Of a stretch of DNA of 64,000 nt, positions 6,076-33,500 are shown in pieces; position 1 is the stretch's first letter, and every line of letters begins with the position of its first letter. This DNA comes from an uncultured Clostridia bacterium. GTDB taxonomy: Bacteria > Bacillota > Clostridia > Christensenellales > CAG-917. Location: the NCBI GenBank assembly GCA_947625225.1, contig CANQNQ010000001.1:225900-289899 (forward strand). Reading direction: 5' to 3'. Below the pieces are notes generated by a model. It did not search any database. It was not told the DNA's origin and saw only the letters and a program-made list of their open reading frames with translations. The position numbers and the translations under genes are program-made.

Positions 6076-6340
6076 AAAAAAATACCTCCTGTTTTTCACC
6101 ACAAGAGATAAAAAAGAGCCCATTGTCACAATGAGCTTCACATCCCGCCCATCGTTCAGCCTTTGGCACCTTGCCATTTATCCGGTAGGTTGCCGTGCGG
6201 TCATAGGGGCTGTCCCTCGCGCATCTCTTGATGGTGTGGCTTTATTATATTGACCCGCCGCCGTTTTGTCAATGGTTAAATGAAATTTTTGTGTGTACAC
6301 AATTGTATTTTTTATGCTTTGCTTTAGACAAATTCTTCCT

Positions 6341-6897: not shown

Positions 6898-6939
6898 ATA
6901 CGAAACAATTCCACCCATCTGGGTGGAATTGTTTCGTAT
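6898..6939. other. Perfect 19-bp stem hairpin abutting the tRNA-Asn 3' end
   Basis: ATACGAAACAATTCCACCC-ATCT-GGGTGGAATTGTTTCGTAT. There is no U-run on either strand, so it may act in processing or termination, or be part of the repeat. Confidence 0.5.
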
Positions 6940-7014
6940 GGCGCCTGTTGAGGGACTCGAACCCCCGACACTTCGGTTAACAGCCGAATGCTCTACCGAC
7001 TGAGCTAAACAGGC
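6939..7014 (-). tRNA. tRNA-Asn (anticodon GTT), CCA encoded
   Basis: The reverse complement reads GCCTGTTTAGCTCAGTCGGTAGAGCATTCGGCTGTTAACCGAAGTGTCGGGGGTTCGAGTCCCTCAACAGGCGCCA. It shows a cloverleaf, a CT-GTT-AA anticodon loop and a GGTTCGAGTCC T-loop. Confidence 0.92.
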
Positions 7015-8395: not shown

Positions 8396-8404
8396 TGTGG
8401 ATAA
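8396..8404. promoter_or_regulatory. Consensus DnaA box (TGTGGATAA)
   Basis: Exact 9-mer, 2 nt after the stop of the upstream gene. Confidence 0.7.
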
Positions 8405-8444: not shown

Positions 8445-8453
8445 TTATCCACA
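8445..8453. promoter_or_regulatory. Consensus DnaA box (TTATCCACA), inverted relative to 8396-8404
   Basis: Exact 9-mer, followed by about 150 bp of AT-rich sequence (8455-8605) up to the dnaN start. Confidence 0.7.
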
Positions 8454-8605: not shown

Positions 8606-9706
8606 ATGAAAGTTATTTGTCAAGGAAACGAATTGAGCGACGCACTGTCAAAAGTGGTCAAAGCGCTGCCCGTCAAGAGGACAAATCCCATTCTGGACGG
8701 GATAAAAATAACCGCAAGCGGCGAGACATTGACGTTGTTTGCCACCGATACCGAACTTGCTATCGAAAAGCGCATAAACGCGCAAGTGCTCATCGAGGGC
8801 GAGATAGTCGTCCCCGGCAAACTGTTTGCGGACTACGCCAAAAAGATAGAGGAAGAAGAGGTTGAACTTGACGGCACAAACGCCGCAAAACTTGTGATAA
8901 GATACCTCGACAGCGAGCTGCAGATCAAGGCGATGAGCGTCGACGAATATCCCGAATTCAAGCAGGTCAACACAGAGACATCCTTTGTCATAATAAAAAA
9001 ACAGCTTAAGGATATCATTGGCAAGGTCATATTCAACGTGTCCGTGGATGAGGCGCGTCCTTCTTTGAGAGGCGTTTGCCTCAATGTAAAAGATGAGGAA
9101 GTAGAGGCTGTCGCGACCGACGGTTACAGACTTGCCCTCACCCGCGCGGTGATAAGAAACAACGGCGTCATCAAAAAGATAGTGGTCCCCGCAAAGAGCA
9201 TGAACGAGCTTTGCCGCCTGCTTGACGACGATGATGAGACCGTGACTGTGTATGTTGAGGACAACTACCTTATGGTGGACCTGTTCCACACCAAGATAGT
9301 CACCCGCCTCATCAGCGAGGAATTCTTGAACTACGAAAAGATAATCCCCAACAACTTTACAACGCAGGTCACCATAGACAAAAAGTTGTGCGAAAACGCC
9401 ATCGAGCGCGTGTCCCTTATAAACAGAATAGACAAAAAAGCGTACGTCAAGATGGAGATCAAAGAGGAGTATATCCTGCTCAACGCGCACAGCGATGACG
9501 GAGAGATAAACGAAAAGATAGCCATTGCCCTGCAAGGCAAAGATCTGACCATCGGCTTCAATGCAAAATACCTGACGGACTGCATGCACGCCATCGAGTC
9601 GCCAATGATAACACTCAACTTCACGACGTCCACCGCGCCCGGCATAATAAAAGGCGAGGATAACAGGTGGCTGTACCTGATACTGCCACTGCGCGTCATC
9701 GCGTAA
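8606..9706 (+). CDS. dnaN: DNA polymerase III beta sliding clamp
   Basis: MKVICQGNELSDALSKVVKALPVKRTNPILDGIKITASGETLTLFATDTELAIE is a typical DnaN N-terminus. Length is 366 aa and the RBS is AAAGGCGAG. Confidence 0.95.
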   Translation: MKVICQGNELSDALSKVVKALPVKRTNPILDGIKITASGETLTLFATDTELAIEKRINAQVLIEGEIVVPGKLFADYAKKIEEEEVELDGTNAAKLVIRYLDSELQIKAMSVDEYPEFKQVNTETSFVIIKKQLKDIIGKVIFNVSVDEARPSLRGVCLNVKDEEVEAVATDGYRLALTRAVIRNNGVIKKIVVPAKSMNELCRLLDDDDETVTVYVEDNYLMVDLFHTKIVTRLISEEFLNYEKIIPNNFTTQVTIDKKLCENAIERVSLINRIDKKAYVKMEIKEEYILLNAHSDDGEINEKIAIALQGKDLTIGFNAKYLTDCMHAIESPMITLNFTTSTAPGIIKGEDNRWLYLILPLRVIA

Positions 9707-9787
9707 CGACAAAATAAAACTTGATGAGAGAAAGCGGCTTGGCGGAATTGTCAAACCGCTTTTTACAAAGACATACAACTTATATAA

Positions 9788-10942
9788 ATGAGAGGAAAGC
9801 TAAAAAAGAGGACAACAACAATACTCTGCGTTTTTGCGGCGTTTGTAGCGGCGCTTGTTGTGCTGTTGACTATAGTGTGTCAAAGCAAGAGATTGTTTGA
9901 GGGGGAGGACAGCGCGGAAAATTATGAGTATGTAATATCTGATATAGAAGGTATTAAAGAGGCAAATCCGCGCATATCCGATATAGCGATGCTAGGCTCG
10001 CATGACGCGAACACATATAATATTGACGTCAAAAACAGTTTGAGCGGAGAAACAAAAGACGGCGTGAAAATATTGAGAGACCTGGCGCCGGGAGTGTTTT
10101 ACAGATATTCCAAGACGCAGACTGACGACATATACGCTCAACTTACAAAAGGCGTGAGATATCTGCATATAAAATGTTCGTATCAAGGCGGCGAGTGGTA
10201 TTGTAGTCACGCCATCCTTTGCGACAAACTTGACGTATATGTGAAACAAGCAATAAAATTTCTTGAGAGCCACCCCGGCGAGATAGTGATATTGACATTC
10301 CAGATCATGTATGCCGAGAACTCCACCGCGGCGGAATTTTGCGACTACGTGTATGGCGGGATAGAATATGATGGGCTGACACTTAGCGACTTTATGCCGT
10401 TTGAAAACTTGTACTACCGCGAGATAACCTACAATCAACTTACCTTAAACGGGACTCAGGCGGGCGCGCTGATCATGTTGGAGGGGAAGGACGACGAGTT
10501 TGACAGAGGCGAGTTTTTCAAGAATATGTATGACAGCAAATATAAAGCCAAATTTAGCACAGAATATCATTATTTGTCCGCAACTTGGCACAACACGATG
10601 AAAGCAAAAACCATGGCGAAAAAGCTGGACGCAAAGTGTGAGCAGATGGACGTAGAAAAAGAGAAGTATGAAGGATATTTCCGCGTGATGCAGATAAACA
10701 CGACGCCAAACGCGAAGGATGTTTTTGAAACAGCGTTTGCTTGGTCGCTGATGGCAAAGGCAAAAAAACACAACGTCGAGATGTTGGAAAACCCCAACTT
10801 TGATAAATGGATGAAGTATATGCCCATTGTGCAATGCGATTTTTCCACCTCCGCAAACGACGATTTCAACAGAAGAATAAACGCAAAAATAAGGGAGTAC
10901 AACACAAAACTTATAGAGAATATGACGGCGCAAAATTTATAA
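9788..10942 (+). CDS. Membrane-anchored PI-PLC X-domain-like protein (phospholipase C-like)
   Basis: N-terminal TM segment (ILCVFAAFVAALVVLLTIV). MLGSHDANTY resembles the catalytic (P)GSHDS motif and GVRYLHIK resembles RYLDIR of PI-PLC/PLCXD proteins. Visibly more AT-rich than its neighbours. Confidence 0.55.
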   Translation: MRGKLKKRTTTILCVFAAFVAALVVLLTIVCQSKRLFEGEDSAENYEYVISDIEGIKEANPRISDIAMLGSHDANTYNIDVKNSLSGETKDGVKILRDLAPGVFYRYSKTQTDDIYAQLTKGVRYLHIKCSYQGGEWYCSHAILCDKLDVYVKQAIKFLESHPGEIVILTFQIMYAENSTAAEFCDYVYGGIEYDGLTLSDFMPFENLYYREITYNQLTLNGTQAGALIMLEGKDDEFDRGEFFKNMYDSKYKAKFSTEYHYLSATWHNTMKAKTMAKKLDAKCEQMDVEKEKYEGYFRVMQINTTPNAKDVFETAFAWSLMAKAKKHNVEMLENPNFDKWMKYMPIVQCDFSTSANDDFNRRINAKIREYNTKLIENMTAQNL

Positions 10943-11128
10943 TAAAAAAATAAAAACAAATATTTTACACAATCAAAACAAACAAATAAACATTTATTTT
11001 GAGTAACAAGAGGGAAATTATAAAAATAAGAAAAGAGCAGATAGAGGCTGTTGTTGAAAACAAATACAGCAAAAAACCAAGTGGCGTAAAAAACGCGCGG
11101 CGCATGGCAAAACAATTTGGATTGAAAT

Positions 11129-11154
11129 AAAAAAACGCCGACTGAACGGTCGGC
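11129..11154 (-). terminator. Rho-independent terminator of dnaA
   Basis: The minus strand reads GCCGAC-CGTTCA-GTCGGC followed by G and T7. Confidence 0.7.
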
Positions 11155-11169
11155 ATAATTTTATAAAAT

Positions 11170-12543
11170 TCAGCGTTTGAGGATCATATTTTTGAGATCC
11201 GCGACAATGATCTTCATTTTGGGATCGGAGCGCAACTCCTCCGCGACTTTGTCCCTTGCGTGGATGACTGTGGTGTGATCGCGCCCGCCGAACATCTCCC
11301 CTATCTGCACAAGCGGCATGGGCAGGATCTCTGTGATGAGATAGATGGCGATCATCCTCGGCTCCACAATATTTTTGGTTTTCTTTTTTGAAAAGATGTC
11401 CGCTTGAGTGATGTTGAAGTACTTGCACACGGTCTCCACGATGTCGCTGGCGTCCACGGTGTCCTTTTTGTCCTCAATAAAGTCGCTGAGCGCCTCATAC
11501 GCCAGCTCGCGCGTGTTGATGACGGAGTTTGTGAGGGAGCTGAAAAACACTATCTTGTTGAGCAAGCCCTCCATTTCCCTGATGTTGGAGGTGGCGTTTT
11601 CCGCAATAAATTCCGCAACGTCGTCGGACAGCGTAAACTTCAGTTGCGCCGCCTTGTTTTTAAGTATAGCTATCCTTGTCTCCATATCAGGAGACTGGAT
11701 GTCCACCGTAAGCCCCCAGCCGAAGCGGGTACGCAGCCTCTCCTCAAGCGTGGTGAGGTCCTTGGGCGATTTGTCCGAGGTGATGATGATCTGCTTGTTG
11801 GCGTGATACAGGTCGTTGAATATGTGGAAAAACGCCTCCTGAGTCGCGTCTTTGCCGATGAGGAACTGCACGTCGTCTATCATCAGCACGTCGCAGGAGC
11901 GGTACTTTTCCCTGAAGCGGTTGTTTTCCTCGTTGGATTTGTTGCGGATGACGGAAATAAGCTCGTTCATAAGCGTCTCTGCGCTTACGTACAGCACGTT
12001 GGTGCGCGGCGAATTTTTGTAGAGGAAATTGCCTATCGCGTGCAGCAGGTGCGTCTTGCCAAGCCCCACGCCGGAGTAGATAAACAGCGGGTTGTATCTT
12101 CCGCCCGGCTCCTCCGCCACGGTGCGGCATGCGGCAAGCGCGTAGGTGTTTGACTTGCCTTCAACAAAATTTTCAAAGGTGTACTTTTCAAGGAATGGGC
12201 ATTTTTTTGGCTGAGACGCGACCGATCTGTTGTCGGTGGTGACAAAACCTTCGTGCTCCAAAAACACGCTCTGCTTGTTGATAAACTCGTCCTTTTTGTC
12301 GGGAGTGGTGATGACGACGTCCGTAACGGACGAGTTGATGGAGGACACCACCTCTTTTATGCTGTCGAGATATTTGGAGTCTATCGTGCGCTTCGCCGTT
12401 TGCGAGATGGTGCACAATATCAGAGCGCCGTCCACAAAACAGACGGGTTGCAGTTTGTCTATCCAGACCTCGTAACTTATGGTCTGGATGGTGATGGAAA
12501 GCTTGTTTTTTGCTTCCGACCAAAAATCTTCGACATTTATCAT
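11170..12543 (-). CDS. dnaA: Chromosomal replication initiator DnaA
   Basis: AAA+ core (YNPLFIYSGVGLGKTHLLHAIGN, DVLMIDDVQFL). C-terminal DNA-binding domain (VEPRMIAIYLITEILPMPLVQIGEMFGGRDHTTVIHA). 457 aa. Confidence 0.97.
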   Translation of the reverse strand: MINVEDFWSEAKNKLSITIQTISYEVWIDKLQPVCFVDGALILCTISQTAKRTIDSKYLDSIKEVVSSINSSVTDVVITTPDKKDEFINKQSVFLEHEGFVTTDNRSVASQPKKCPFLEKYTFENFVEGKSNTYALAACRTVAEEPGGRYNPLFIYSGVGLGKTHLLHAIGNFLYKNSPRTNVLYVSAETLMNELISVIRNKSNEENNRFREKYRSCDVLMIDDVQFLIGKDATQEAFFHIFNDLYHANKQIIITSDKSPKDLTTLEERLRTRFGWGLTVDIQSPDMETRIAILKNKAAQLKFTLSDDVAEFIAENATSNIREMEGLLNKIVFFSSLTNSVINTRELAYEALSDFIEDKKDTVDASDIVETVCKYFNITQADIFSKKKTKNIVEPRMIAIYLITEILPMPLVQIGEMFGGRDHTTVIHARDKVAEELRSDPKMKIIVADLKNMILKR

Positions 12544-12653
12544 AGTTCAGATATTATAACAGAAAATCCGCGCAATTCAAGCGAAAAAGTCAAAAAGAAA
12601 AAAAGACCACAATATGTTGAAAAAAAGGCGGGATTACGCTATACTTGTTGTAT

Positions 12654-13742
12654 ATGAAGATATTGTCGCTAGAGCTCAAAAACTTCCGCAATTACGAGTA
12701 CGCCCACGCCGAATTTTGCGACGGGCTGAATGTGCTGTACGGGAAAAACGCCAGCGGCAAGACCAATATGCTTGAGAGCATATATCTAAGCTCCGTCTTT
12801 CACAGCCCCCGCACCACAAAGGACAAAGAGATGGTGCGCCTCGAGCAGCCCTACGCCACCGTGCGCCTGATGATAGAGCGCAAATACCGCACCTACAAGA
12901 TAGAGCTGATGATAGACAGCCAGGGCAAAAAGAAAGTTGCGGTGAACGGCATCCCCGTCAACAGAGCGGGCGAATTGCTGGGCGTGCTGGGCGTGGTATT
13001 TTTCTCTCCGGACGAGATGAAACTGGTGAAGGAATCCCCCGCCGAGCGCCGCAGATTTCTGGACGTAGGATTGAGCCAACAACAAAAAAGCTACTTTATC
13101 GCGCTGCAACGCTACAATAAAACGCTCAAACAGAAAAACAACCTGCTCAAGGAATACCGCAACTCCAACACTGACGATATGCTGGACGTGTGGGACGCGC
13201 AGCTGGCAAAAGAGGGCGCCATACTTATAGACAAGCGGCGGGAGTATGTGGATACGCTCAACAAGGCGGCGGGCAAATTCCACAGCAGCATGAGCAACGA
13301 CAAGGAGCAATTGCGCCTGTCCTACGAAACCTCGGTCACCGAAGGCGGCGGCGAGGAAGAGTTGCTTAAGGCGATAAAGGGCGCGCGCGAAAAGGACAAG
13401 GAGCTGGGCTTCAGCACCATTGGCCCGCACAGGGACGACATAAAGATAGAGATAGACGGCAGGGACAGCCGCAAATTCGCCTCTCAGGGGCAGCAGCGCA
13501 CCATTGCGCTTGCGATGAAGCTGGGCGAGGTTGTGATATTCAAAAACGAGCTTGGCGAGCCGCCCGTGTTGTTGCTTGACGACGTGCTGAGCGAACTGGA
13601 CGAAACAAGGCAGGATCTGCTGCTGAAGATGACGTACGGATTTCAGACCATACTTACCTGCACGGAGTATACCCTGCCCAACAAGGCGGCGTTGTTTGAG
13701 ATAGAAAACGGCAGGATAAAGGGTAAAACATCCCGGAATTGA
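12654..13742 (+). CDS. recF: DNA replication and repair protein RecF
   Basis: MKILSLELKNFRNYEYAHAEF..LYGKNASGKTNMLESIYL (Walker A), and the signature FASQGQQRTIALAMKLG...LLLDDVLSELD. The ATG at 12654 is preferred over the TTG at 12645. Confidence 0.93.
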   Translation: MKILSLELKNFRNYEYAHAEFCDGLNVLYGKNASGKTNMLESIYLSSVFHSPRTTKDKEMVRLEQPYATVRLMIERKYRTYKIELMIDSQGKKKVAVNGIPVNRAGELLGVLGVVFFSPDEMKLVKESPAERRRFLDVGLSQQQKSYFIALQRYNKTLKQKNNLLKEYRNSNTDDMLDVWDAQLAKEGAILIDKRREYVDTLNKAAGKFHSSMSNDKEQLRLSYETSVTEGGGEEELLKAIKGAREKDKELGFSTIGPHRDDIKIEIDGRDSRKFASQGQQRTIALAMKLGEVVIFKNELGEPPVLLLDDVLSELDETRQDLLLKMTYGFQTILTCTEYTLPNKAALFEIENGRIKGKTSRN

Positions 13743-13772
13743 AAAACGCCCCATACGGCAAAGACGAACAAG

Positions 13773-13802
13773 AAAAGTCGGAAGGTATGCTTCCGACTTT
13801 TT
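13773..13802. terminator. Bidirectional terminator between the convergent recF and parB
   Basis: AAAA-GTCGGAAG-GTATG-CTTCCGAC-TTTTT. Confidence 0.65.
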
Positions 13803-13843
13803 GCTGAAAACAATATTTTTGACGCAGCTCCGCCTGCGGAGAG

Positions 13844-14734
13844 TCAATCCATCAGCTTTTTGAGGTGCTGGATGTATTCGTGCACGCGCTCGAGGTCGTC
13901 CGCGGTGTAGTAGTCTATGGTGATGCGGCCTATGCTCTCGTTGCCCTTTATCATGACTTTGGTCTTGAAAATGCGCTTCATGTCGTTGACAAGCTCGCGC
14001 ATCTCAAGAGAGGGGCGCTTCCTGGGGCCGTGAGGAATGTTTTTCCTTGAGAAGTACAGATTGACTTCCCTCTCCAGCTCGCGCACGGAAAGGTTGTGCT
14101 CCACCGTCTTTTTGGCGAGGGCGATAAGCTCCTCCTTGTTGTCGATGGATATAAGCGTCCTGGCGTGACCGGGGGACAGCTTGCCGTCGCGCACAAGCGC
14201 GGACACTTCCTGCGGCAGTTGCAGCAGGCGCAGCGTGTTGGTGACGTAGGGACGGGATTTGCCTATCTTTGCGGCGACTTCCTCCTGTGTGAGGCCGTGG
14301 CTTTCCATCAGTTCCTTCATGCCCTCTGCCGCCTCGATGGCGTTGAGGTCCTCGCGGTGCAGGTTTTCGATGAGGGATATCTCCTGTTTTTGCTCGGCGG
14401 TGAAGTTGCGTACCACCACGGGCACCGTCTTGAGTCCCGCCATCATGCACGCCCTGAAGCGGCGCTCGCCCGCGATTATCATATATCTGCCGTCGCCGTT
14501 TTTTTCGACGATTAGCGGCTGCAGCACGCCGTATAAGGCGATGGAGTTTGAAAGCTCTTTAAGGCCTTCTTCCTTGAAGGTTTTTCTGGGCTGATTGGGA
14601 TTGCGGTCCACCAGTGTGATATCCACGTCCATCGTCACGATGTCCTCTCCCAGATCCACGGATACGTTTTCCATATTGTCGTTGAACAGCGCGTTCAAGC
14701 CCTTCGCGCCCAAGCCGCCCTTTGTGTTTGCCAT
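13844..14734 (-). CDS. parB: Chromosome partitioning protein ParB/Spo0J
   Basis: RNPNQPRKTF, GVLQPLIV, IIAGERRFRA (ParB box), and the HTH LTQEEVAAKIGKSRPYVTNTLRLL. Confidence 0.93.
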   Translation of the reverse strand: MANTKGGLGAKGLNALFNDNMENVSVDLGEDIVTMDVDITLVDRNPNQPRKTFKEEGLKELSNSIALYGVLQPLIVEKNGDGRYMIIAGERRFRACMMAGLKTVPVVVRNFTAEQKQEISLIENLHREDLNAIEAAEGMKELMESHGLTQEEVAAKIGKSRPYVTNTLRLLQLPQEVSALVRDGKLSPGHARTLISIDNKEELIALAKKTVEHNLSVRELEREVNLYFSRKNIPHGPRKRPSLEMRELVNDMKRIFKTKVMIKGNESIGRITIDYYTADDLERVHEYIQHLKKLMD

Positions 14735-14814
14735 AGTTGCACCTACCCTTTTTGTTTTTTATGAATTTGATGTTTATGTTTGCGATATATGTGTGTAAAC
14801 CGCGTGTTTTGAAA

Positions 14815-15579
14815 TCACAGCCTTGCCAAAAATTCCTTTGCGAGCGCGTCGTACGCCACCGCTCCCGCGCACTTTTTGTCGTACAGCGCCACGGGTTTGC
14901 CGTAGCTTGGCGCCTCCGCCAGGCGTATGTTGCGGGGGATCTTCGCGTCGTACACCTTGTCGCCGAACACCTTGAGAATCTCCTCCAGCACGCCCTTGCA
15001 CAGCTTTGATCTGCCGTCGTACATGGTGAGGATGACGCCGTACACCTCAAGCGCGGCGTTGAGATGTTTTTTGACCAGCTTGACCGTATTCATCATTTGG
15101 CTAAGCCCCTCCAGCGCAAAGAATTCGCACTGTATGGGCACCACCACGCCGTCCGACGCGGTAAGCGCGTTTACGGTGAGCAGCCCAAGCGAGGGCGGAC
15201 AGTCTATAAACGCAAAGTCGTAGCCCTCCGCGGCGGAGCGCAGTTTTTCCTCCAACACGCGTTCCCTGCCGATGACTATCTGACTAAGCTCCAGCTCAGC
15301 GCCGGCCAGGTCGCTTGAGGACGGGACGAAGTCCAACCCCGCTATCTCACTGTGGCGTATCGCCTCGGACATTTCCATGCGGTCGCAAAGCACGTCGTAT
15401 ACGGAGCGCTTTTCACGCTTGTCAAACACGCCGAGGGCGCTGGACGCATTGCTTTGCGGATCAAAATCCACAACAAGCACGCGCTTGCCCTTCAGCGCAA
15501 GGGACGCAGCAAGGTTGACGCAACTGGTCGTCTTGCCCACGCCGCCCTTCTGGTTTGAAAAGGAAAGTATGGTTGCCAT
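14815..15579 (-). CDS. parA: Chromosome partitioning ATPase ParA/Soj
   Basis: Deviant Walker A NQKGGVGKTT, then VLVVDFDPQSNAS. 254 aa. No obvious SD upstream of the ATG. Confidence 0.93.
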   Translation of the reverse strand: MATILSFSNQKGGVGKTTSCVNLAASLALKGKRVLVVDFDPQSNASSALGVFDKREKRSVYDVLCDRMEMSEAIRHSEIAGLDFVPSSSDLAGAELELSQIVIGRERVLEEKLRSAAEGYDFAFIDCPPSLGLLTVNALTASDGVVVPIQCEFFALEGLSQMMNTVKLVKKHLNAALEVYGVILTMYDGRSKLCKGVLEEILKVFGDKVYDAKIPRNIRLAEAPSYGKPVALYDKKCAGAVAYDALAKEFLARL

Positions 15580-15789: not shown

Positions 15790-16488
15790 TTACAGTGGAC
15801 GCTTTTTTATCGTCGCGTAGGGGCGAGGATATTTCTTTGGGGTCTCGTCCGTCTTTTTGAAGGTGAGCACAGCCCTTTGGTCGCCATTGGGCAACTGAAG
15901 CGTTTTTGTGCGCAGATATTGCATATTCAATGTTTTAAGTGCAGATTTTGATTGATAAAGCTCGGATTCGTCGGATTTGTATGCCACAAATATGCCCCCG
16001 ATCTTAAGCAGCGGCGCCGCCAACTCCAGCAATATGGGCAGGCTTGCCACCGCCCTTGCCGTCACCGCGTCGAAGCGCCCGCGGAAACGGGTCAGCTCCT
16101 CCGCCCTGCCCGCAACGCAGTCTATATTGGTTATGCCCAACATCCCCGCGCAGCCGCGCACGAAGTCCGTCTTTTTGGCGGTGGAGTCTACGGCCGTTAC
16201 TGTTATGTCCCGCCTGGCTATAGCGAGAGGCACGCTTGGAAAGCCCGCGCCCGTGCCTATGTCGCATACATCCGCGCCGACCGGGATTTCGCTCGCGCCG
16301 GACAGCGAATCCGCAAAATGTTTGACAGCAAACGCGTCCTCGTCCGTGATGGCGGTAAGGTTGAAGCGCGTGTTGGCGTCAAGCACCATGTCGCAAAACG
16401 AGGACAGCTTGGCTTGCATGTCGTCGTCAAGCAGAAGGCCATATCTAAGGCAAAACGTTGTGAGCATTTCAAGGTTGGTCGGCTTCAT
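15790..16488 (-). CDS. rsmG: 16S rRNA (guanine527-N7)-methyltransferase RsmG (GidB)
   Basis: FNLTAITDEDAFAVKHFADSL and the SAM motif VCDIGTGAGFPSVPLAI. 232 aa. Confidence 0.9.
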   Translation of the reverse strand: MKPTNLEMLTTFCLRYGLLLDDDMQAKLSSFCDMVLDANTRFNLTAITDEDAFAVKHFADSLSGASEIPVGADVCDIGTGAGFPSVPLAIARRDITVTAVDSTAKKTDFVRGCAGMLGITNIDCVAGRAEELTRFRGRFDAVTARAVASLPILLELAAPLLKIGGIFVAYKSDESELYQSKSALKTLNMQYLRTKTLQLPNGDQRAVLTFKKTDETPKKYPRPYATIKKRPL

Positions 16489-16609
16489 AAATCCATACTA
16501 TCATTTTTTGATCGGCAAATCAATATGCAACAGAAAAATATGCGCAGACATTTTGCTCGCGGCTTGAATATTGCCAAAAGGAGTGCTATCATATAACAGG
16601 AGGCGTCTT

Positions 16610-17332
16610 ATGAGAATAGGTATTGTCACTGCAATGGCGTCCGAAACTTTGCCCATCTACCAAAAGCTGGGCAACGTCACAGCGCAAAGCACCATATCGG
16701 GCGTTTATATACGCAAGATCGAGATAGACGGCAACACCGTCTACCTCGCCACTTCCGGCGTGGGCGAGATACGCGCCGCCCTCGCGGCGCAGCTGCTGAA
16801 GGATCTGTTTGACGTGGAGGCGATGCTCAACTTCGGCTTCGTCGGCGCGCTGGATCCCGCGCTGCGCGTGGGCGAGTTGGTGCTGGTGGACAGGGTGTGC
16901 CACTACCAATTCGACACCTCCGCGATAGACGGCACAATGCCAGGACAATACCCCGAATGCAACGACCGCTTCTTCAGGCTGGACGGATCGCTGATAGACA
17001 GAGTCCTTGAGGCGGTGGGCAAGCCCATGCGCGTCGTGGCGGCGGCAAGCGGAGACGTGTTCGTCGCGGACGGCAAAACAAAACGCGTACTACATAAGGA
17101 CTTCGGCTGCGGCATCTGCGAGATGGAGCTGGCGGGACTTGCCATTGCATGCCAGCGCAATAGAATACCGCTTTTGTCTGTAAAAGTGGTGTCCGACAGA
17201 GCGGACGAGGGCGCAACGGAAAGTTTCTCGACCATTGTGGCAAAGGGGCTCAGCCGCTACGAAAGCCTGCTGCCCGACGTTTTGGCGGCAATAACGGGCA
17301 ACGTATCGCCCCTGCCTCCGATCAAGCCTTAA
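16610..17332 (+). CDS. MTA/SAH nucleosidase-like protein (PNP_UDP_1 family)
   Basis: The ATG at 16610 follows AGGAGG. MRIGIVTAMASE..., SGVGEIRAALAAQLL, GFVGAL, EMELAGLAIAC and VVSDRADE parallel E. coli Pfs (MKIGIIGAMEEE, SGIGKVAAA, EMEATAIAHV, ISDVAD). Confidence 0.75.
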   Translation: MRIGIVTAMASETLPIYQKLGNVTAQSTISGVYIRKIEIDGNTVYLATSGVGEIRAALAAQLLKDLFDVEAMLNFGFVGALDPALRVGELVLVDRVCHYQFDTSAIDGTMPGQYPECNDRFFRLDGSLIDRVLEAVGKPMRVVAAASGDVFVADGKTKRVLHKDFGCGICEMELAGLAIACQRNRIPLLSVKVVSDRADEGATESFSTIVAKGLSRYESLLPDVLAAITGNVSPLPPIKP

Positions 17333-19159: not shown

Positions 19160-19288
19160 AGAGGATTTCTGCGGGTAGAATCCCCTTTGTTGTCTGACAA
19201 GTTGGCGGTAGCACAAAGCCCTGTAAGGGCAATCAAAAAGAAAAGTGCTCTAAACGAAATCCGATGTGATGCGAATAAGATAATAAGG

Positions 19289-19325
19289 CGCCCGTTGTTT
19301 CACGCGAAACAGCGGGCGTTTTATG
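19289..19325 (+). terminator. 13-bp-stem hairpin plus T-run (terminator) that embeds a parS-like palindrome
   Basis: CGCCCGTTGTTTC-ACGC-GAAACAGCGGGCG then TTTTATGTT. The core TGTTTCACGCGAAACA (19296-19311) has 1 mismatch to the parS consensus TGTTNCACGTGAAACA. Confidence 0.6.
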
Positions 19326-19360
19326 TTATGAGGAAATGAGCTGACAGAAACTCGACCCTT

Positions 19361-19560
19361 GTTCATGAAGCTAACACCCCTGTGGCAGGTCACGCTCGGA
19401 ATAACCTTATCCCCGGATATGAGCCTGCGCCCCACAGATTTACTCCTGTTCGTGAAGCTACGCCCTCCGTGGTACACCATACTCAGAATGATCCTATCAC
19501 CGAATCTACTATTATTCATGAAGTAACGCCCGTGTGAACACGCCACTCGAGATTCCCAAC
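19361..19560 (+). repeat. Three imperfect tandem units (about 57-nt core; periods 87 and 66 nt)
   Basis: Cores begin TTCATGAAGCTAACACCCCTGTGG (19362), TTCGTGAAGCTACGCCCTCCGTGG (19449) and TTCATGAAGTAACGCCCGTGTGAA (19515). Each continues ..CTC(G/A)GAAT(A/G)A(C/T)CCTATC(C/A)CCG. Confidence 0.6.
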
Positions 19561-19899
19561 ATTAAATAAAATTTGCATTATGTTAATGGGCAGCCGTGCT
19601 GTCACCACGCGCAATCTCCATATAAACACGACGATGTCAATATTGCTTTGACATGGATTAACGTTTGAATCCACCCCCAACACCGCCGACGAGTCACACA
19701 ACCCGGCGCCCACAGAGATCTGCATTGTTTTATGTGGAACATTTCCGTTTTACATAAAATATACGCCAAAGTGACATTATTCCACAGCATAACCAACGCT
19801 GTTGCAATCAAATCCATCTGAAGACAGCATCTGAAATGGCAGCAATCACGTCCACGCTCGACGGATAACTGCAAGAAAGGGGAGCAGATGTTCCACAAA

Positions 19900-20370
19900 T
19901 CTCAATCCGGATAAAAGGAAGATCCATCACCCGTTCAACATTCTTTCTTTACCACTCAAGCCCGCGCAGCTTCACCGCTAGCCTCTTCTGCGCCATCACA
20001 CCCCCCTATCATCTTTCTTAACAATCATACTGGCGCCACTATTCCTGTATAGTCCGCAGTGGCGTTACTATTTCACCTCACCTGCCCATTGTCATCAGTC
20101 CCTTATCAATCACGCCAACGTCGCCTTTTCAATACCGTTTCTCATACATTGCTTCCCTTATTATCAACTTCTCAAACCATCATTATTTGACCAATCGTTC
20201 ATGCTCTAGATCCACGAGACGTCTCACTGAGCCGTTTCCCATTGTATCACCCCCCCCCCGCATCATCCTTGCCGTAAGCATATTTTTGAATAATCTCGCC
20301 TATTTTCCTATACTGTGCGCAAAGATAAGTAAAATATCCATATAACTGAAACGGCAATATACAACGCGCC
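19900..20370 (-). repeat. G-poor (plus strand) segment; probable inverted, degenerate copy of the purine-rich repeat at 21432 and 22156
   Basis: Its reverse complement is purine-rich. It shares collinear anchors with the right-hand units: GAAATAGTAA ... GTGGCGCC ... GGGGTGT(T)GA(GA)TG. Confidence 0.35.
20250..20259 (+). repeat. Homopolymeric C10 tract
   Basis: ATCACCCCCCCCCCGCATC. Confidence 0.9.
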
Positions 20371-20445
20371 TCAACTCATATAATAACATATAGCCGGCAG
20401 CTCAAAACAACTGCAAATATACAATAAAAAACAAAAAATTTTGAA

Positions 20446-20461
20446 TGTTCTACGTGAAACA
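20446..20461. promoter_or_regulatory. parS (ParB-binding centromere-like) site, 1 mismatch
   Basis: TGTTCTACGTGAAACA against the Firmicute consensus TGTTNCACGTGAAACA (position 6 is T instead of C). Confidence 0.7.
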
Positions 20462-20713
20462 TTCGACCACAAATGCCTACTATCAGGTGGAATTCTGGCA
20501 ATACACATTCCCGATCGGGAGTAACATGAAAGATGGTATGAGCGCGTAATGGCAATATGAATGTGTGCCGACTGGGTATGTGCCGCGGACGGGTAAAGCG
20601 GAAGATGTTTCACATAAACAACACGCCAAGCGCTGCTTTTGAGTGGTGAGAAACACAAACTTTTCAAAACGTGTTGCGAGGTGGATAAAATTGGCAAAAT
20701 AGCCATTTTTATA

Positions 20714-20729
20714 TGTTTCACGTGGAAAA
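20714..20729. promoter_or_regulatory. parS site, 1 mismatch
   Basis: TGTTTCACGTGGAAAA. The reverse complement TTTTCCACGTGAAACA differs from the consensus only at position 2. Confidence 0.7.
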
Positions 20730-20746
20730 TCGAGAAGTCTGCACTC

Positions 20747-20762
20747 CGTTTCACGTGGAACT
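20747..20762. promoter_or_regulatory. parS site, 2 mismatches (outermost positions)
   Basis: CGTTTCACGTGGAACT. The central 14 bp match the consensus. It lies 33 bp from the previous site. Confidence 0.65.
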
Positions 20763-20779
20763 GAAACTGCCGAAATGCT

Positions 20780-21380
20780 ACTGTTTAGTGGGGTTTTGGC
20801 CGCTCGCAAGGTTACATTGCGTTCTTTCACCCAAATTTTTTTCAGCGACCTTTCACCTAAATTTTTCCGACCAATTTTTGCATAAAATGTTTCGCAGAAA
20901 AATTGTGCTTTTTTATAGAAATGTTTCACGAATTGTAGCATTTCCTCATAAAATTGTCAAGCAATATGCGTTTTTATCTGGGAAAATGCTCATTTTTCTG
21001 TGAATTTTGCGAGATTTTCTGTGTTTTCCGTGCTTAAAATTGGTGTAGAGAAGTCAATTTTGTGCGACTGCAAAAACCGCATTTGCTTTCTCCATGAAAA
21101 ATTCAGTTCGTTTTTCAGAGATTTTGGCCTGAATTTGAGCGGATTTTGGTGATTATAACGGCAAAAATCACGTTTTTGATGAAAATTTTGCTGCAGGAAG
21201 AGAGCTTTTGGATTCACAGTCCCTTGAGATGGCTGATTTCCGGATTGTTCATGGGACGAAATGCTTCTTGTGCATGGGCGCAATTGTGCTTTGGCCTTGA
21301 AAAATCTTGGGCTGTTTCTTGTGCAAAAGAGCGATTTTGCTACAAAATAGTTTACAAATAAACCGTATTCTAAAAATATT
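20780..21380 (+). repeat. Array of short T-tracts (ATTTT/GTTTT/AATTTT), many spaced about one helical turn apart
   Basis: For example CATTTTTCTGTGAATTTTGCGAGATTTTCTGTGTTTTCCGTG (about 20990-21030). Judged by eye. Confidence 0.55.
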
Positions 21381-21431
21381 GAGAGAGAATATTGGGCGAG
21401 CAGGAAAACAAGAGCGTAAATTTGCGCAGCA

Positions 21432-21840
21432 AAATGATAGGAAGGGTGGAGATCGCGGATAAGATGGGAGGAAGAGTCGTTTGTCGAGAACAGAGATGCC
21501 GGTATGGGGAAAGTAAACTCGGCTTATGGATAGAAAATATTTCAAGGGGGTGGCGAGGGACAAAACATACGGAGGTATAGATAGGAGAGACGGGTCGGGG
21601 AATGAAGTAAGATGATTTCAAGAGGGACGAGGGGATCAAAAGAGTCGGTGGTGTCGGATGGGGGAGAGCGGGGCCACTAAACAGTGGGGAGATTGTGATG
21701 ATTTTTGAGTAGATTTTGGAGACATAAGAGAGGTGAACTGAGAGAAGTGGGGCATTTCAAGAGGGGAAGAGATAATTAAAATAATCAGTGGCGTCGGGCA
21801 TGGAAAAGGGTTGAAAACCCTAGTAAACAGTGGGTATAGA
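21432..21840 (+). repeat. Purine-rich degenerate repeat, copy 1 (about 410 bp)
   Basis: Aligns by eye along its length with 22156-22575. It starts AAATGATAGGAAGGGTGGAGATCGCGG against AAATGATAGGAGGAGCGGAGATCGTTG. There are three internal TTTCAAG(R)GGG sub-repeats at 21539, 21616 and 21755. Confidence 0.7.
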
Positions 21841-22155
21841 GGGACGTTGATTCGAAATAAAGGGAGGTGGACACCAGGAGAGAACGCCTAAAATTCTACT
21901 TTATGCTGAGCGTGAAATGGGAATTAAGTGCAGGGATTTTGGGACTGACCGGCAGGGGGCTTGAATGTAAAAGATTATAGGCGTCGAACGGGGAAATGCA
22001 AGCGGAAATGCGAGTATAATTATGGGGCAAAAGGATATGAACCTCATATATCACGGATTAGATCGGTGAAGGCGGCAGGGTGACCGAAGAGACAGGTTAA
22101 AAACTGCGGAAAATAACAGATGAGAACAAACGCGCAGATGGAAATGTCGGCAGTG

Positions 22156-22575
22156 AAATGATAGGAGGAGCGGAGATCGTTGTTAAGTTTGGCGGAGGAG
22201 TGGTTCATTGAGAACAGCTATGTTGGAATGGGGAAAGGCGACTGGGAGGTATGGATAGAGAATTTTCAAGGGGTGACGAAGGGCAAAATAAGTGGAGGCA
22301 TGGATAGGAGAGGCGGAGGCTAGCTAGGAAATAGTAAGGGATTTCAATGGGTGACGAGGGGATAAAAAGAATCGGTGGCGCCGGATAGGGGAGAGTGCGC
22401 AAAAAGCTACTAAATAATGGGGTGTTGAGATGACTTTGAGGAGACTTTGGAGACAGGAGAGAGGAGAGCTGGGAGAGGCAAAAGGGAGATGATTTCAAGA
22501 GGGTGAGGGAATTAAAGGGATCAGGGTGCCAGGCAGGGCATAAGGATAGAAAATCTAACTAAATAGTGGGGCTTT
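22156..22575 (+). repeat. Purine-rich degenerate repeat, copy 2 (about 420 bp; offset about 724 bp from copy 1)
   Basis: Sub-repeats at 22264, 22342 and 22493 have the same internal spacing as copy 1. Shared blocks: ..GAGGGGAT(n)AAAAGA(n)TCGGTGG(T/C)G(n)CGGAT(n)GGGGAGAG...CTAAA(n)A(n)TGGGG. Confidence 0.7.
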
Positions 22576-22799
22576 GTGGGAAAGTGTAGTGAATACTGTG
22601 TTTGTGAGCTAAAATGTTGGCGAAAAGCGAGTGGAAAGGGCAGAATGAACGGGGCAGGCAAATTGAGAGAGAAAACAGCCGATAATACAGTTGAAAAGAC
22701 AGAAAAGTGCATGCGGACAATGATAGGCTGTGATTTTGGCTCGTAAAGCGGGATTTGAGCGGGAATTGGGCGAAATGTGAGTAAACTCACGAGAAGAGG

Positions 22800-23560
22800 C
22801 CTCAAAACGGCTTAAAACGACTCTGAGAGGCTCAAAAGCCGTGTTGTGTGTAAAATGCGGCCGAGATGTAGCGAATAGAGGGGGAATCGGCGTAAAACTA
22901 GCCGACGACCGGTGCAAAGCCGCAAAATAAACAAATGCAGACCAAAATGAAGGCAAACGGCTGTCAAAAGCCGAAAATCCTCTAAACAGCCGTGATTGGC
23001 TGTAAAGAGCACAAATGGCGGCGGAAGGGGCAGGGTTTGCTGTAAACGGTCGCAAAAGCGAGCAAATAGCTTAAAGATCGCCAAAAATGGCGTAAGCAGC
23101 CGGCAAATGGGCTGAAATGCCCCAAATAGTGGCGAAAAGCCGTAAAAAGCCTTCGAATAGGCAAAAAAGCCGCAAAACAGCCAAAAAGAGGGCAGACAGA
23201 GGCAAAATCGTCCAAAATGGTGAAAATCGCTGTGGACAGAGGGGAAAGCGGCTAAAAGTCGCGTTTTGGGCTTAAATGGCAAAGAAAAGCCGAAAATGTG
23301 CCGAAAAGCCACCAAACAGCGGGGTTTTTGGCCAATCGGCCGCATATTTTGAAAAAGTTGCTAAAATGCGGGTAAGCGGGTAATTTTATGCAAAATGCCG
23401 CGCTGCGGCAGGCAAAATGTGCATAAATCAAATTGATATATGGGGTACAAAATGACTTGTGGGGTGCGGATTTTTGAATTAAGGCAAGAAAACCGCGATT
23501 TTGCATAAATGGGTTGTGGAAAAGTGGGCAAAATTGATATATGGGATACGAAAAGTGCTT
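22800..23560 (+). repeat. Array of helically phased A-tracts (GCnAAAA type) on the plus strand
   Basis: For example 23101-23240, CGGCAAATGGGCTGAAATGCCCCAAATAGTGGCGAAAAGCCGTAAAAAGCC...GGCAAAATCGTCCAAAATGGTGAAAATCG. A-runs start every 9-12 bp. There is also a pair of AAATTGATATATGGG(G/A)TAC repeats near 23430 and 23531. Confidence 0.65.
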
Positions 23561-23717
23561 TTAAGCGGCCGCTTTTTGCATTATGCATAAAACGGGTAAA
23601 ATGAATAAAAGCAGGCGCCGTAAAGGTCGATCTTGGGGCAAAATGGAGCAGCGCAAGCGCAATATTATAGTTGATCAGATCGCCGAAAAATATTTTGAAA
23701 TTTATTCGCGCGCGCGC

Positions 23718-23746
23718 TTGCAATATGTTTACAAATATGCTAAGAT
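23718..23746 (+). promoter_or_regulatory. Candidate sigma-A promoter of gyrBA
   Basis: TTGCAA (23718-23723), a 17-nt spacer, then TAAGAT (23741-23746). AAGGAGG RBS before the ATG at 23798. Confidence 0.55.
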
Positions 23747-23785
23747 ATTTTTAATATTTATAATGCTTATAAATTTACTTTGTAA

Positions 23786-25708
<1,923 letters not shown>

Positions 25709-25718
25709 GGGGGTAAAT

Positions 25719-28277
25719 ATGGCAAACATAAGAGACGACAAAAACAACGAATATGTGCAACATATTGCCAATTCCATCGTCAAGGACGTGGAGATCAACG
25801 GCGAGCTGAAGAGGTCGTTTATATCCTACGCCATGGCGGTCAACGTATCCCGCGCCATCCCCGACGTGCGCGACGGACTCAAGCCCGTACACAGGCGTAT
25901 ACTTTACGCTATGAGCGAGCTAGGCCTGACTCCCGACAAGCCCTACCGCAAGTGCGCCATGGTCGTCGGCGAGGTGCTTGGCAAGTACCATCCTCACGGC
26001 GACAGCTCGGTGTACGACGCGATGGTGCGCCTTGCGCAGGACTTCTCCATCCGCTGCCCCCTCATCGACGGACACGGCAACTTCGGCTCGGTGGACGGCG
26101 ACCCGGCGGCGGCTTACCGCTACACGGAGGCGAGGCTGAGCAAGATAGCGCTTGAGGTGATACGCGACATAGACAAGCGCACGGTGGACTTCTATCCCAA
26201 CTTCGACGACACGCGCGAGCAGCCCGTGGTGTTGCCTTCGCGCTTCCCCAACCTGCTTGTAAACGGCTCGGACGGCATTGCGGTGGGCATGGCGACCTCT
26301 ATCCCTCCCCACAATCTCGGCGAGGTCATAGACGCGACCGTGGCGCTTATACAGCATCCCGACATCACCGTGGACGAGTTGATGGAGTTTATCCCCGCGC
26401 CGGACTTCCCGACGGGCGCGCTTATTTTGGGCAGAAACACCATAAAGCAGGCGTACCGCACGGGCAGAGGCATGGCTATACTGCGCGCAAAGGCGGAGAT
26501 AGAGGAGATGGCAAACGGCAAGAGCCGCATTGTGGTCACCGAGATACCCTATCAGGTCAACAAAGCCAAACTTATCGAGAACATAGCCGACCAGGTCAAG
26601 GACAAGCGTCTTGAGGGCATTGCGGACCTCCGCGAGGAGACCGACCGCCACGGCATGCGCATCGTCATCGAGCTCAAAAAGGACGTTAACGCGCAGGTTT
26701 TGCTCAATCAACTGTACAAACAGACGGCAATGCAGACCAACTTCAGCATGATCATGCTGGCGCTGGTGGACGGCGTGCCGCGCGTGCTGAACCTCAAAGA
26801 GATACTTGAATGCTACGTCGCGCATCAGATGGACGTCATAGTGCGCCGCACGCGTTTTGACCTTGAAAAGGCGCTGGAAAGACAACACATTTTGCTTGGC
26901 TTGCACATAGCGCTTGAAAACATCGACGCTATTGTGGAGCTGCTCAAAAAGTCCCGCGACCGCCAGGACGCTATGGCGAAGTTGATGGAGGCATATCTGC
27001 TGTCCGACAAGCAGGCGGGCGCAATCCTCGACATGAGATTGCAGCGCTTGACCAGCCTCGAAGTGGAAAAGATAGAGGCGGAACTCGAAAGCCTTACAAA
27101 GCAGATAGAGTACTACAACCTCGTGCTGTCCAGCGACGACGAAGTCAAGGCGATAATAGTGCGCGAGATAAGCGAGATAAAGGCGCAATACGCCACCCCC
27201 AGACTGTCCGAGATCACCTATGACTACGGCGATATAGACATCGAGGACCTCATCGAGCGCGAGGACGTCATAATATCCATGACTCACGGCGGCTACATCA
27301 AGCGCATGCCCGTCAGCGAGTACAAAGCTCAGCGCCGCGGCGGCATGGGCATCACCGGTCACAAGACCAAGGACGAGGACTTTGTGGAGAATATATTCAC
27401 CTCCAACACGCACGAGAGGTTGATGTTCTTCACCAACCTCGGCAAAGTGTTCACGCTCAAGGCGTATGAGATCCCAGAGGCGACCCGCAACGCGCGCGGC
27501 AGAGCGGCGGTCAATCTGTTGCAGCTGGAGCAGGGCGAAAAGATACAGGCGTTCTTGCGCATGCCCGACGACCTCGAGGGCAAGTACCTGCTGCTGGCGA
27601 CAAAGCGCGGCCTGATAAAGAAGACTCCGCTTGTGGAGTTTGAATCCATCAAGCGCAACGGCAAGATAGCCATCAAGTTCAACGAGAACGACGAGCTTAT
27701 CGACGCCATGGTCACCGACGGCGACTCAGAACTTATAGTTGCCAACAGCGCGGGCCTCAGCATCCACTTCCACGAGAGAGACGTGCATCCCGTGGGCAGG
27801 ACGGCAATGGGCGTCAAAGCGATGAATTTGCCCGAGGGCGCAAACCTTGTGGCGCTGACCGTCGTCAAGCCCGGCGACGAGATCCTCACGGTCACCAGCG
27901 GCGGCTACGGCAAGCGCAGCGACGTGGCGGACTATCCGCTGCAGGGCAGAGCCGGCAAAGGCGTCAGAGCGGGCGTATTCAACGACAAGACGGGCAGCCT
28001 TGTGGGGCTGAAAGTCATCCCCGCCGATATGGACGTGATGATGATCACCGACGGCGGCGTCATAATCCGCGTGCAGGCCGACGAGATCAGCAAGATAGGC
28101 AGAGCCACTCAGGGCGTGCGCGTCATGAAGCTTAAGGACGACAAGATGAGCGTCATGGCAATAGCTCTCACTCCGCATGAGGATGAGGAGGAAGAAGGCG
28201 AAGCCGTCGAAGGCGCAGAGGGCGTCGATGGCGAGCAGATCATGGGCGAAAACGCAGGCGAAGGCGGCGAGGAGTAA
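25719..28277 (+). CDS. gyrA: DNA gyrase subunit A
   Basis: [51 protein letters not shown] (QRDR region), active-site [10 protein letters not shown], and an acidic C-terminal tail. Confidence 0.97.
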
Positions 28278-33042: not shown

Positions 33043-33500
33043 TTTACCGAAAATGCCACACGGTTGCGGTTTTTGCCGTTTTCGGGGTGGTGTTTGAGGG
33101 ATAATTGAAGCACTTTTCTCTCTCTGCCGCAGGGTGTTGTTGAGGACGGTTTTTGGTCATCCTTACGCAACTTCCTATGTGACAGACGCCACGGGTTGGC
33201 GTAGCCACGCGCAAATATGGCGCGTCGGGCGCGCAAAAGCGCCACCTGTGTTGCAAAATCCGCGCCAAGCGCGGGGGAGAGGTAAGGACAAACAGACGCG
33301 ACAACAACGGACTGACGGGAGAGTTTTTTTTGTATCACACCAATGGGACGGGAAGCGAAAGTCGCCTCCGCCCCGACAGCAAACCTAGGCACACAACGAA
33401 AAAGTGCGACCTGTATTGAGTTTTTCGGCGGGATGGGTCCTCATCCCCCGCATGCGAGAGCAGCAAAAATTCTTGTTTTTGGGAGAACTTGAAAGTGAGA

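Follow-up and report, generated by a model that had tools for sequence, protein, structure and literature searches.

In Bacillus subtilis, the parS sites of the chromosomal ParABS system reportedly follow the consensus TGTTNCACGTGAAACA and number about ten; most are said to lie within genes, one of them inside spo0J, across the fifth of the chromosome nearest the origin. Here we describe a cluster of parS-like sites in a 64,000-nucleotide stretch of DNA from an uncultured Clostridia bacterium (contig CANQNQ010000001.1, positions 225,900 to 289,899; hereafter the window), where the sites occupy a gene-free island upstream of gyrB. The locus resembles that of B. subtilis in its 16-bp palindrome, in a Spo0J-type ParB (GERRFRA motif and helix-turn-helix (HTH) layout), in the adjoining soj/parA gene, and in its probably origin-proximal position. 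It differs in that five sites fall inside 1.5 kb of the island and none in parB.

A short earlier reading of the same sequence (the original prediction) had regarded this packing of sites into intergenic DNA as unusual. The packed intergenic cluster holds up, but the arrangement is less unusual than this suggests, since dense clusters of this kind near parAB or oriC are on record from several phyla. Corynebacterium glutamicum carries ten clustered parS sites, nine of them intergenic, and a single site suffices (Boehm et al. 2020, PMC7083940). As in that organism, multiple B. subtilis-like 16-mers of the window are clustered near the probable oriC, are probably redundant, and include degenerate copies beside good ones. 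The C. glutamicum cluster, however, extends over 35 kb of gene-containing DNA 73 kb from oriC (PMC7083940), whereas the sites considered here are confined to one gene-free gap of 1.5-5.7 kb with a conserved core module of about 230 bp. Caulobacter crescentus has at least five clustered parS sites, with ParB distributed over about 10 kb (Tran et al. 2018, PMC5815017), but it belongs to a different phylum and its sites lie among genes. In Pseudomonas aeruginosa, parS1-4 form a cluster near oriC (Jecz et al. 2015, PMC4368675), and its ParB also binds arms singly in vivo, GTTCCAC as well as GTTTCAC (Kawalek et al. 2018, PMC5961200). The isolated arms of the window are the same heptamers. Those of P. 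aeruginosa are found genome-wide and mostly within genes, whereas here four TTTCAC-type arms stand in the same orientation beside a parS pair, in an array that is conserved across genomes.

The arrangement is thus a sound but fairly ordinary instance of the known ParABS system, and the current picture of such systems is unchanged. Specific to this locus are the long dedicated noncoding island, its fixed tie to gyrB, and a set of conserved accessory motifs. We consider it very probable that the sites are the nucleation parS sites of the chromosomal ParABS system and that together they form the centromere of the chromosome, in the gene-free island upstream of gyrB. Under this assignment, the centromere of these uncultured gut Clostridia, a poorly known group, would lie at a defined and conserved spot, with parS sites in an unusually long dedicated noncoding island as compared with the scattered intragenic sites of Bacillus.

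Clustering of parS-like sites upstream of gyrB

The consensus scans and the gene survey cover the 64-kb window. When both strands were scanned with TGTTNCACGTGAAACA at up to three mismatches, 11 strand-hits were obtained at six positions, all inside 19296-21328; dinucleotide-preserving shuffles (n = 100) gave 2.09 +/- 1.87 strand-hits, and none of them reached 11. Scanning with the symmetric consensus TGTTNCACGTGNAACA at up to two mismatches returned five sites (Table 1), three of them with one mismatch (19296, 20446, and 20714) and two with two (19726 and 20747), as compared with a chance expectation of about 0.2 sites per 64 kb. The 7-nt arms GTT[TC]CAC are concentrated in the same DNA: nine of the 18 in the window fall inside 19290-20935, an interval of 1.65 kb that makes up 2.6% of the window (binomial P about 2e-10). 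A chance origin of the clustered sites is excluded. No match to the consensus at up to three mismatches was found in parB or in the rest of the window outside 19296-21328, as the original prediction had stated for parB.

That prediction had listed four full sites and isolated half-sites at 19733-19741, 19889-19896, 20606-20613, and 20922-20930. All of these sequences and coordinates are exact, and the mismatch counts given for the full sites are correct on the better strand. The four full sites stand, but the count does not: 19733-19741, listed as a half-site, turns out to be the right-hand arm of a full-length but degenerate fifth site at 19726-19741.

The five sites are not of equal quality. 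Position 10, altered in the site at 19296, is T in 31 of 32 sites of relatives, and no counterpart of this site was found in those genomes. As had been proposed, the site lies in a terminator-like hairpin, of which it forms the upper stem and the loop; the RNA fold has a free energy of -29.8 kcal/mol (z = -7.8), is followed by UUUUAU, and lies 125 nt past the stop codon of the ABC-2 permease gene. This hairpin has the look of an intrinsic terminator for both directions, formed around a parS palindrome, and the site may have both terminator and parS roles or a terminator role alone. In the site at 19726, position 8 is altered, which is invariant in the sites of relatives, and the site is probably weak or dead. 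The C-to-T change at position 6 of the site at 20446 recurs in two sites of the closest relative (L015). The remaining two sites, which we refer to as parS-A (20714) and parS-B (20747), are separated by 33 bp centre to centre. Position 15, altered in parS-A, is C in 30 of 32 sites of relatives.

The gyrB locus in related genomes

GyrB was used as an anchor for finding the locus in other genomes, as it is 93-95% identical in many relatives; ParB, where fetched, is 70-85% identical and was of little use as an anchor because gene order around parB varies. The labels attached to relatives are limited to "uncultured Clostridiales bacterium" for a metagenome-assembled genome (MAG) and Christensenellales or Acutalibacteraceae for ParB homologues. 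Nine of them were examined at gyrB (L012, L013, L014, L015, L016, L017, L033, L138, and L139). The original prediction had suggested checking whether relatives conserve the cluster, and eight of the nine do. In all but L012, the DNA upstream of gyrB is free or nearly free of genes over 1.5-5.7 kb, and each of these gaps holds two to five parS sites at up to two mismatches. Many of these sites are perfect, including TGTTTCACGTGAAACA in L013 and L017 and TGTTTCACGTGGAACA in L014, L033, and L139. In L012, purL lies directly upstream of gyrB and there is no parS site.

The sites stay within the gaps. No site at up to two mismatches was found outside the gap in the 5.5-22-kb loci of the relatives that have one, and overall the gaps hold 37 sites in 28.6 kb (1.29 per kb) as compared with one in 241 kb of other DNA (0.004 per kb). 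In L014, parAB is located on the other side of gyrBA, yet the cluster remains at gyrB. Among 8-mers common to seven gaps, GTTTCACG ranks first (37 copies, 70-fold enriched) and is followed by other parS words; DnaA-box words are absent from the 8-mers enriched in the seven gaps. With a ParB/ParA pair nearby, a cluster conserved upstream of gyrB, and this parS word as the top 8-mer, the earlier proposal that the sites form a ParB-binding cluster appears well supported.

Other comparisons contributed less. The sample that yielded L015 also yielded contig L010, which encodes a ParB 85% identical to that of the window; in the window and L015 lineage the predicted parS sites are somewhat degenerate. 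A contig search with ParB returned one fairly close relative (67% identity) on an 11.6-kb contig without the cluster, which is uninformative because synteny is broken. The ParB-centred locus of L009 (ParB 74% identical) has a different gene order and a single site with two mismatches. At least 120 metagenome contigs (L018-L137) carry tandem parS sites paired at a spacing of 14-20 bp; among the matches listed, their G+C content ranges from 29 to 74% and some contigs have up to 14 sites. Close spacing of paired parS sites is therefore widespread. The original prediction was right that two sites stand 33 bp apart, but such a pair is not peculiar to this locus, and we rejected it as a special feature given how common such pairs are in metagenomes of very different taxa.

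Three of the relatives have a composite element near gyrB. In L013 (9684-9890), L017 (9628-9750), and L033 (1330-1375), a degenerate parS-like sequence of the form CGTTTCACG(T/G)C(A/G)AACA, given as CGTTTCACGTCRAACA, abuts two DnaA-box-like sequences. A further DnaA-box-like sequence follows about 80 bp on in L013 and L017, and L013 has another beyond it. A composite of this kind is absent from the window.

The conserved core module

Only two parts of the island can be aligned with relatives, a module of about 230 bp and about 100 bp at the gyrB promoter. Even in comparison with L015, with gyrB 84.5% identical at the nucleotide level, these two segments (the module at 71%) are all that aligns in the gap. 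Blastn aligns the module with L015, L017, and L013 at 70-72% identity and, more weakly and in inverted orientation, with L016; L033, L138 (inverted), and L139 align with it in an eight-genome alignment (A3). Relative to gyrB, the module is inverted in L016 and L138.

Alignment A3 has a fixed order of motifs, and nearly all of its invariant columns fall inside them. It begins with ATGTTTCACGTGRAAMA (parS-A, 20714), a spacer of 16-17 nt, and GTTTCACGTGRAAC (parS-B, 20747). After about 15 nt there follow CYACTRWWYAGTGG with a T-run (20778) and CTTTSACC (20824), and the order ends with CTTTCACCYRAATTTTT (20850), TGTTTCNCA (20888), and TGTTTCAC (20922). Within the parS pair, positions 2-4, 6-11, and 13-14 are invariant in the eight genomes and the flanks diverge. 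The core columns of parS-B are invariant save for the degenerate position 12 (G or A), and by this measure parS-B is the best conserved site. The original prediction had given it the most mismatches of the four (two, both outermost), which would make it the weakest; that impression needs adjusting, as both mismatches fall on positions 1 and 16, which vary freely in relatives, and leave the 14-bp core untouched. Across the sites of the clade the variable positions are 1, 5, 12, and 16, which gives a clade-specific site model of a 14-bp core with these positions free.

The other motifs of the module recur as well. CYACTRWWYAGTGG, whose centre occurs in either orientation among the genomes, also accompanies parS sites of L015, L033, and L014, at a distance of 15-25 bp; no known binding protein could be matched to it. 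It is confined to gaps upstream of gyrB (L033 at 521, 907, and 1316; L015 at about 2003 and 2812; L014 at 8884), and further copies in the window, at 21674, 21820, and 22407, lie in purine-rich repeats. Of the two direct repeats, the one at 20850 is invariant in the eight genomes. We know of no accessory-motif module reported for Caulobacter. The module is a short conserved element whose accessory motifs could be tested with purified ParB. A near-consensus sigma-70-type promoter (TTGACA, 17 nt, TG-n-TACAAT) is present at 20960-20932 on the minus strand and points leftward into the module; it is not conserved in relatives.

The window ParB and its predicted specificity

The window ParB contains the Pfam domains ParB_N and HTH_ParB, the GERRFRA motif for binding cytidine triphosphate (CTP), and an N-terminal KGGLGAKGLNALF. 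Its best matches in the PDB are chromosomal ParB/Spo0J proteins, with Noc clearly lower. They include ParB of Caulobacter (6t1f) and Helicobacter (4umk) and Spo0J of B. subtilis (6sdk; E = 4.5e-50) and Thermus (1vz0); the top three entries (7bnk, 7o0n, and 7bnr) are labelled just "ParB family protein".

Noc is a ParB-family protein that recognises a related 16-bp palindrome, the Noc-binding site (NBS) TATTTCCCGGGAAATA (PMC7383237). Four residues set parS binders (RTAG in Caulobacter) apart from Noc (QKKR) (Jalal et al. 2020, PMC7383237). In an alignment to 6t1f, the corresponding residues of the window ParB are R161, T167, Q172, and G189. The two specificity-switching positions hold R and G rather than the Q and R of Noc, and there are no lysines at the permissive positions. 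The window sites, unlike the NBS, carry the parS bases G at position 2 and A at position 7, by which they are predicted to be parS. A Noc/NBS reading is ruled out by these bases together with the ParB residues. These domains and residues mark the window protein as a canonical chromosomal ParB with specificity of the parS type. All seven ParB proteins of the clade that were compared share an identical recognition helix, GKSRPYVTNTLRLLQLP, and an identical LSPGHAR segment, so the perfect sites of relatives should define the preference of the window ParB.

Proposed mechanism

We predict that ParB dimers, encoded 4.6 kb to the left, would recognise the 14-bp core GTTTCACGTGRAAC through their HTH. 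Binding to parS would trigger CTP-dependent closure of the N-terminal gate that contains GERRFRA, and the closed clamps would slide into the flanking DNA, such that repeated loading at closely spaced sites could build a partition complex of several kilobases. ParA/Soj would then move this complex, which presumably also loads SMC. With several sites close together, loading would be redundant and locally frequent, as in C. glutamicum. What the sequence shows is identity to parS, nonrandom clustering, conserved position and conserved sites amid DNA that changes fast, and a ParB of parS-specific type whose recognition helix is common to the clade; ParB binding, spreading, SMC loading, and segregation are inferred. 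The likely main loading sites are parS-B and parS-A, and we propose that 19296, 20446, and especially 19726 act as weaker auxiliaries. The isolated arms may add low-affinity ParB binding, which is plausible for single and arrayed arms because P. aeruginosa ParB binds single arms (PMC5961200).

It is also conceivable, if rather unlikely, that the island is a composite "regional centromere" that consists of more than a few ParB sites. The core of such an element would comprise the ordered parS pair, the CYACTRWWYAGTGG inverted repeat, and the oriented array of four TTTCAC-plus-A/T-tract elements; around it lie kilobases of gene-free DNA that evolves fast and is extreme in composition, with repeats rich in purines and A-tracts that are phased at 10.0 bp over 600 bp. 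If so, the extra motifs could bind an accessory centromere factor or could organise, orient, or stop ParB clamps, and the islands of some relatives may be coupled to DnaA through the parS-like site and its DnaA boxes.

Alternative explanations

Several observations weigh against the assignment of the sites as the centromere. There is no perfect 16-mer among them, and the sites at 19296 (position 10), 19726 (positions 6 and 8), and 20714 (position 15) are altered at positions that are invariant or nearly so in relatives. An intrinsic-terminator stem-loop can also account in full for the site at 19296, which lacks conservation. The conserved module motifs CYACTRWWYAGTGG and CTTTCACC-AAATTT are not obviously explained by ParB, and stronger parS sites may be located elsewhere in the genome, beyond the 64 kb scanned. 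In C. glutamicum, sequences with three or more mismatches do not recruit ParB (PMC7083940), and this intolerance suggests that some of the window sites may be weak or dead.

The most serious qualification is that only parS-A and parS-B may work as a centromere, with 19296, 19726, 20446, and the scattered arms as relics and 19296 serving as a terminator hairpin. The alignable DNA holds only the pair, and the other three sites are altered at positions conserved in relatives, are without positional counterparts in other genomes and, in the case of 19296, fold as a terminator-like structure. Moreover, a single parS site is enough in C. glutamicum and P. aeruginosa (PMC7083940, PMC4368675). However, relatives that have the cluster keep two to five sites despite turnover of the surrounding DNA, which argues for selection on their number, and a match at 15 of 16 positions inside a terminator would be very improbable by chance. 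Spo0J of B. subtilis also reportedly binds sites with one or two mismatches, which we count against function of the pair alone. Such a restricted centromere seems improbable to us.

A different possibility is that the island makes up all or part of the replication origin and that the TGTT(T/C)CAC motifs are variant DnaA boxes (TGTTCCACA matches TTATCCACA at seven of nine positions). The island is the largest noncoding region near dnaA, dnaN, and gyrB, and its final 250 bp are very AT-rich, although AT-rich DNA adjoining gyrB is also promoter region. At 300-400 bp from gyrB in L013, L017, and L033, the parS-like site abuts two or three DnaA-box-like sequences, and in L014 gene orientation diverges at the gap. 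The conserved words, however, contain the centre of the palindrome (GTTTCACG, CACGTGAA) and not the 3' end of a DnaA box, and DnaA boxes at up to one mismatch occur at background density, with three in the 4.6-kb island as compared with 27 in 59 kb. The perfect and conserved DnaA boxes, at 8396 and 8445, are located instead ahead of dnaN, and cumulative GC skew reaches its lowest point at 7-8 kb, with positive skew over 8-19 kb. We regard an origin in the island as very improbable, and a cluster of DnaA boxes there is unsupported, as box density is that of the background and the shared 8-mers are parS words. The island may nevertheless have an origin function in some genomes. Least credible, and close to negligible, is a reading that makes the palindromes operators for a non-ParB transcription factor, or the island a noncoding RNA gene or promoter region that controls gyrBA. 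It is true that the island runs up to the gyrB promoter, that conserved motifs besides the sites occur in the module, and that there is a strong sigma-70-like promoter on the minus strand, but that promoter is not conserved and the sites fit the 16-bp parS consensus at 14-16 positions, with perfect copies in relatives. The island has no Rfam match, and RNAalifold on eight genomes gave a covariation term of -0.05 with no compensatory pairs; a known or structured RNA in the island was rejected as unsupported. The inversion of the module relative to gyrB in L016 and L138 is hard to square with a fixed promoter or leader role.

The DnaA boxes upstream of dnaN form a conserved pair about 50 bp apart. 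Those at 8396-8404 (minus strand) and 8445-8453 (plus strand) are both perfect copies of TTATCCACA and lie between an ArsP_2-family gene and dnaN, where they coincide with the GC-skew minimum of the window. The pair is kept in L009 (2586/2635) and L014 (21790/21841), with one box perfect and the other TTGTCCACA. The 100-bp intergenic region between dnaA and recF has no DnaA box. Judged by their conservation and by the GC skew, the boxes upstream of dnaN are probably oriC or part of it, about 12 kb left of the proposed centromere.

Noncoding status and sequence of the island

The original prediction had described the DNA around the sites as free of genes, and this is borne out. No Pfam match was obtained for the open reading frames (ORFs) 19602-19898, 20371-20754, and 20483-20941 in the site-bearing part or for 22812-23345 further right, and Rfam gave no match in the island even at E<=1. 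When six-frame stop-free segments were compared with relatives, matches were confined to one short module, in several frames and on both strands, which indicates conservation at the level of DNA and not of protein. Coding potential of the island was thus rejected as an explanation, as was a mobile element or longer repeat that carries the sites, since the repeats between sites are the 14-19-nt palindromes alone.

Three independent ENA assemblies of the same strain, found by exact look-up of ParB, carry the locus with essentially identical DNA. Over 19160-21200, L007 is identical to the window and L006 differs by one substitution and the length of a poly-C run. These contigs confirm the sequence and carry no evolutionary information. 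The poly-C run (C10 at 20250-20259, C11 in L006) could reflect a length polymorphism or a low-coverage assembly error.

Other sequence features of the island were recorded in passing. In its C-rich left part, 19352-19523, there are three direct repeats of about 19 nt (TYNAC...TGTTCRTGAAG) spaced by 87 and 66 bp. The stretch 21400-23340, about 1.9 kb, is 64-72% purine on the plus strand, and its GC skew reaches +0.62. It includes a degenerate tandem duplication of about 725 bp (21418... vs 22142...) and shorter internal repeats starting ATTTCAAGRGGG, and it is without ORFs, an Rfam match, or alignment even to the closest relative. Across about 600 bp of 22700-23400, A-tracts in GCCGAAAA-type units are phased at 10.0 bp, the strongest periodicity in the window (power 6.6 vs a shuffle 95th percentile of 0.46). 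This phasing implies intrinsically bent DNA 400-1100 bp upstream of gyrB. Similar phasing is present in L015 (4900-5400), 200-700 bp upstream of gyrB, and is not found in more distant relatives.

Gene order in the window

The sites are 3.7-6.2 kb from parA and parB, in agreement with the distance of roughly 5 kb given in the original prediction, and dnaA, dnaN, recF, and gyrBA all lie within 12 kb of the cluster (Table 1). No noc paralogue was seen beside parAB in the window.

Table 1. Sites, motifs, and genes at the parS-like cluster, numbered from the first nucleotide of the window
Feature	Position	Strand	Remarks
dnaN	8606-9706	+	
384-aa gene	9788-10942	+	
dnaA	11170-12543	-	
recF	12645-13742	+	
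parB, 296 aa	13844-14734	-	Pfam ParB_N + HTH_ParB; predicted binder of the parS sites
parA/soj, 254 aa, partner ATPase	14815-15579	-	Pfam AAA_31/CbiA/ParA; deviant Walker A KGGVGKT
rsmG	15790-16488	-	
Nucleoside phosphorylase gene	16571-17332	+	
ABC transporter (ABC-2 permease gene)	ends 19159	+	
Gene-free island, 4.6 kb, ABC-2 permease gene to gyrB	19160-23797		ORF list, Pfam, Rfam, relatives
A-tract / 19-bp hairpin / T-tract enclosing site 1	19283-19324	+	RNA fold
parS-like site 1, TGTTTCACGCGAAACA	19296-19311		one mismatch, position 10
parS-like site 2, TGTTTTATGTGGAACA	19726-19741		two mismatches in left arm (positions 6, 8); right arm intact
Isolated arm TGTTCCAC	19889-19896	+	
parS-like site 3, TGTTCTACGTGAAACA	20446-20461		one mismatch, position 6
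Isolated arm TGTTTCAC	20606-20613	+	
Core module, about 230 bp	20701-20930	+	blastn; eight-genome alignment A3
parS-A, TGTTTCACGTGGAAAA	20714-20729		one mismatch, position 15; relatives perfect here
parS-B, CGTTTCACGTGGAACT	20747-20762		14-bp core intact; both mismatches outermost
CTACTGTTTAGTGG, 5-bp inverted repeat, 4-nt centre, then T-run	20778-20791		
Direct repeats CTTTCACCCAAATTT (20824) and CTTTCACCTAAATTT (20850)	20824-20864	+	TTTCAC core resembling a parS arm, then A/T tract
Conserved degenerate arm TGTTTCGCA	20888-20896	+	TGTTTC-C invariant in alignment A3
Conserved isolated arm TGTTTCACG	20922-20930	+	TGTTTCAC invariant in alignment A3
gyrB	23798-25708	+	
gyrA	25719-28277	+	

The order of genes over 8606-15579, with dnaN(+), the 384-aa gene(+), dnaA(-), recF(+), and parB-parA-rsmG(-), is rearranged with respect to the usual Firmicute layout. 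It varies again in the close relatives L009, L013, L014, and L016, and the parS island stays with gyrB. To the left of the presumed origin region, a SAM (S-box) riboswitch (6146-6237) and a tRNA-Asn gene (6939-7014) are found on the minus strand. At the other side of the cluster, a single ORF on the plus strand (33489-48758) encodes 5089 aa.

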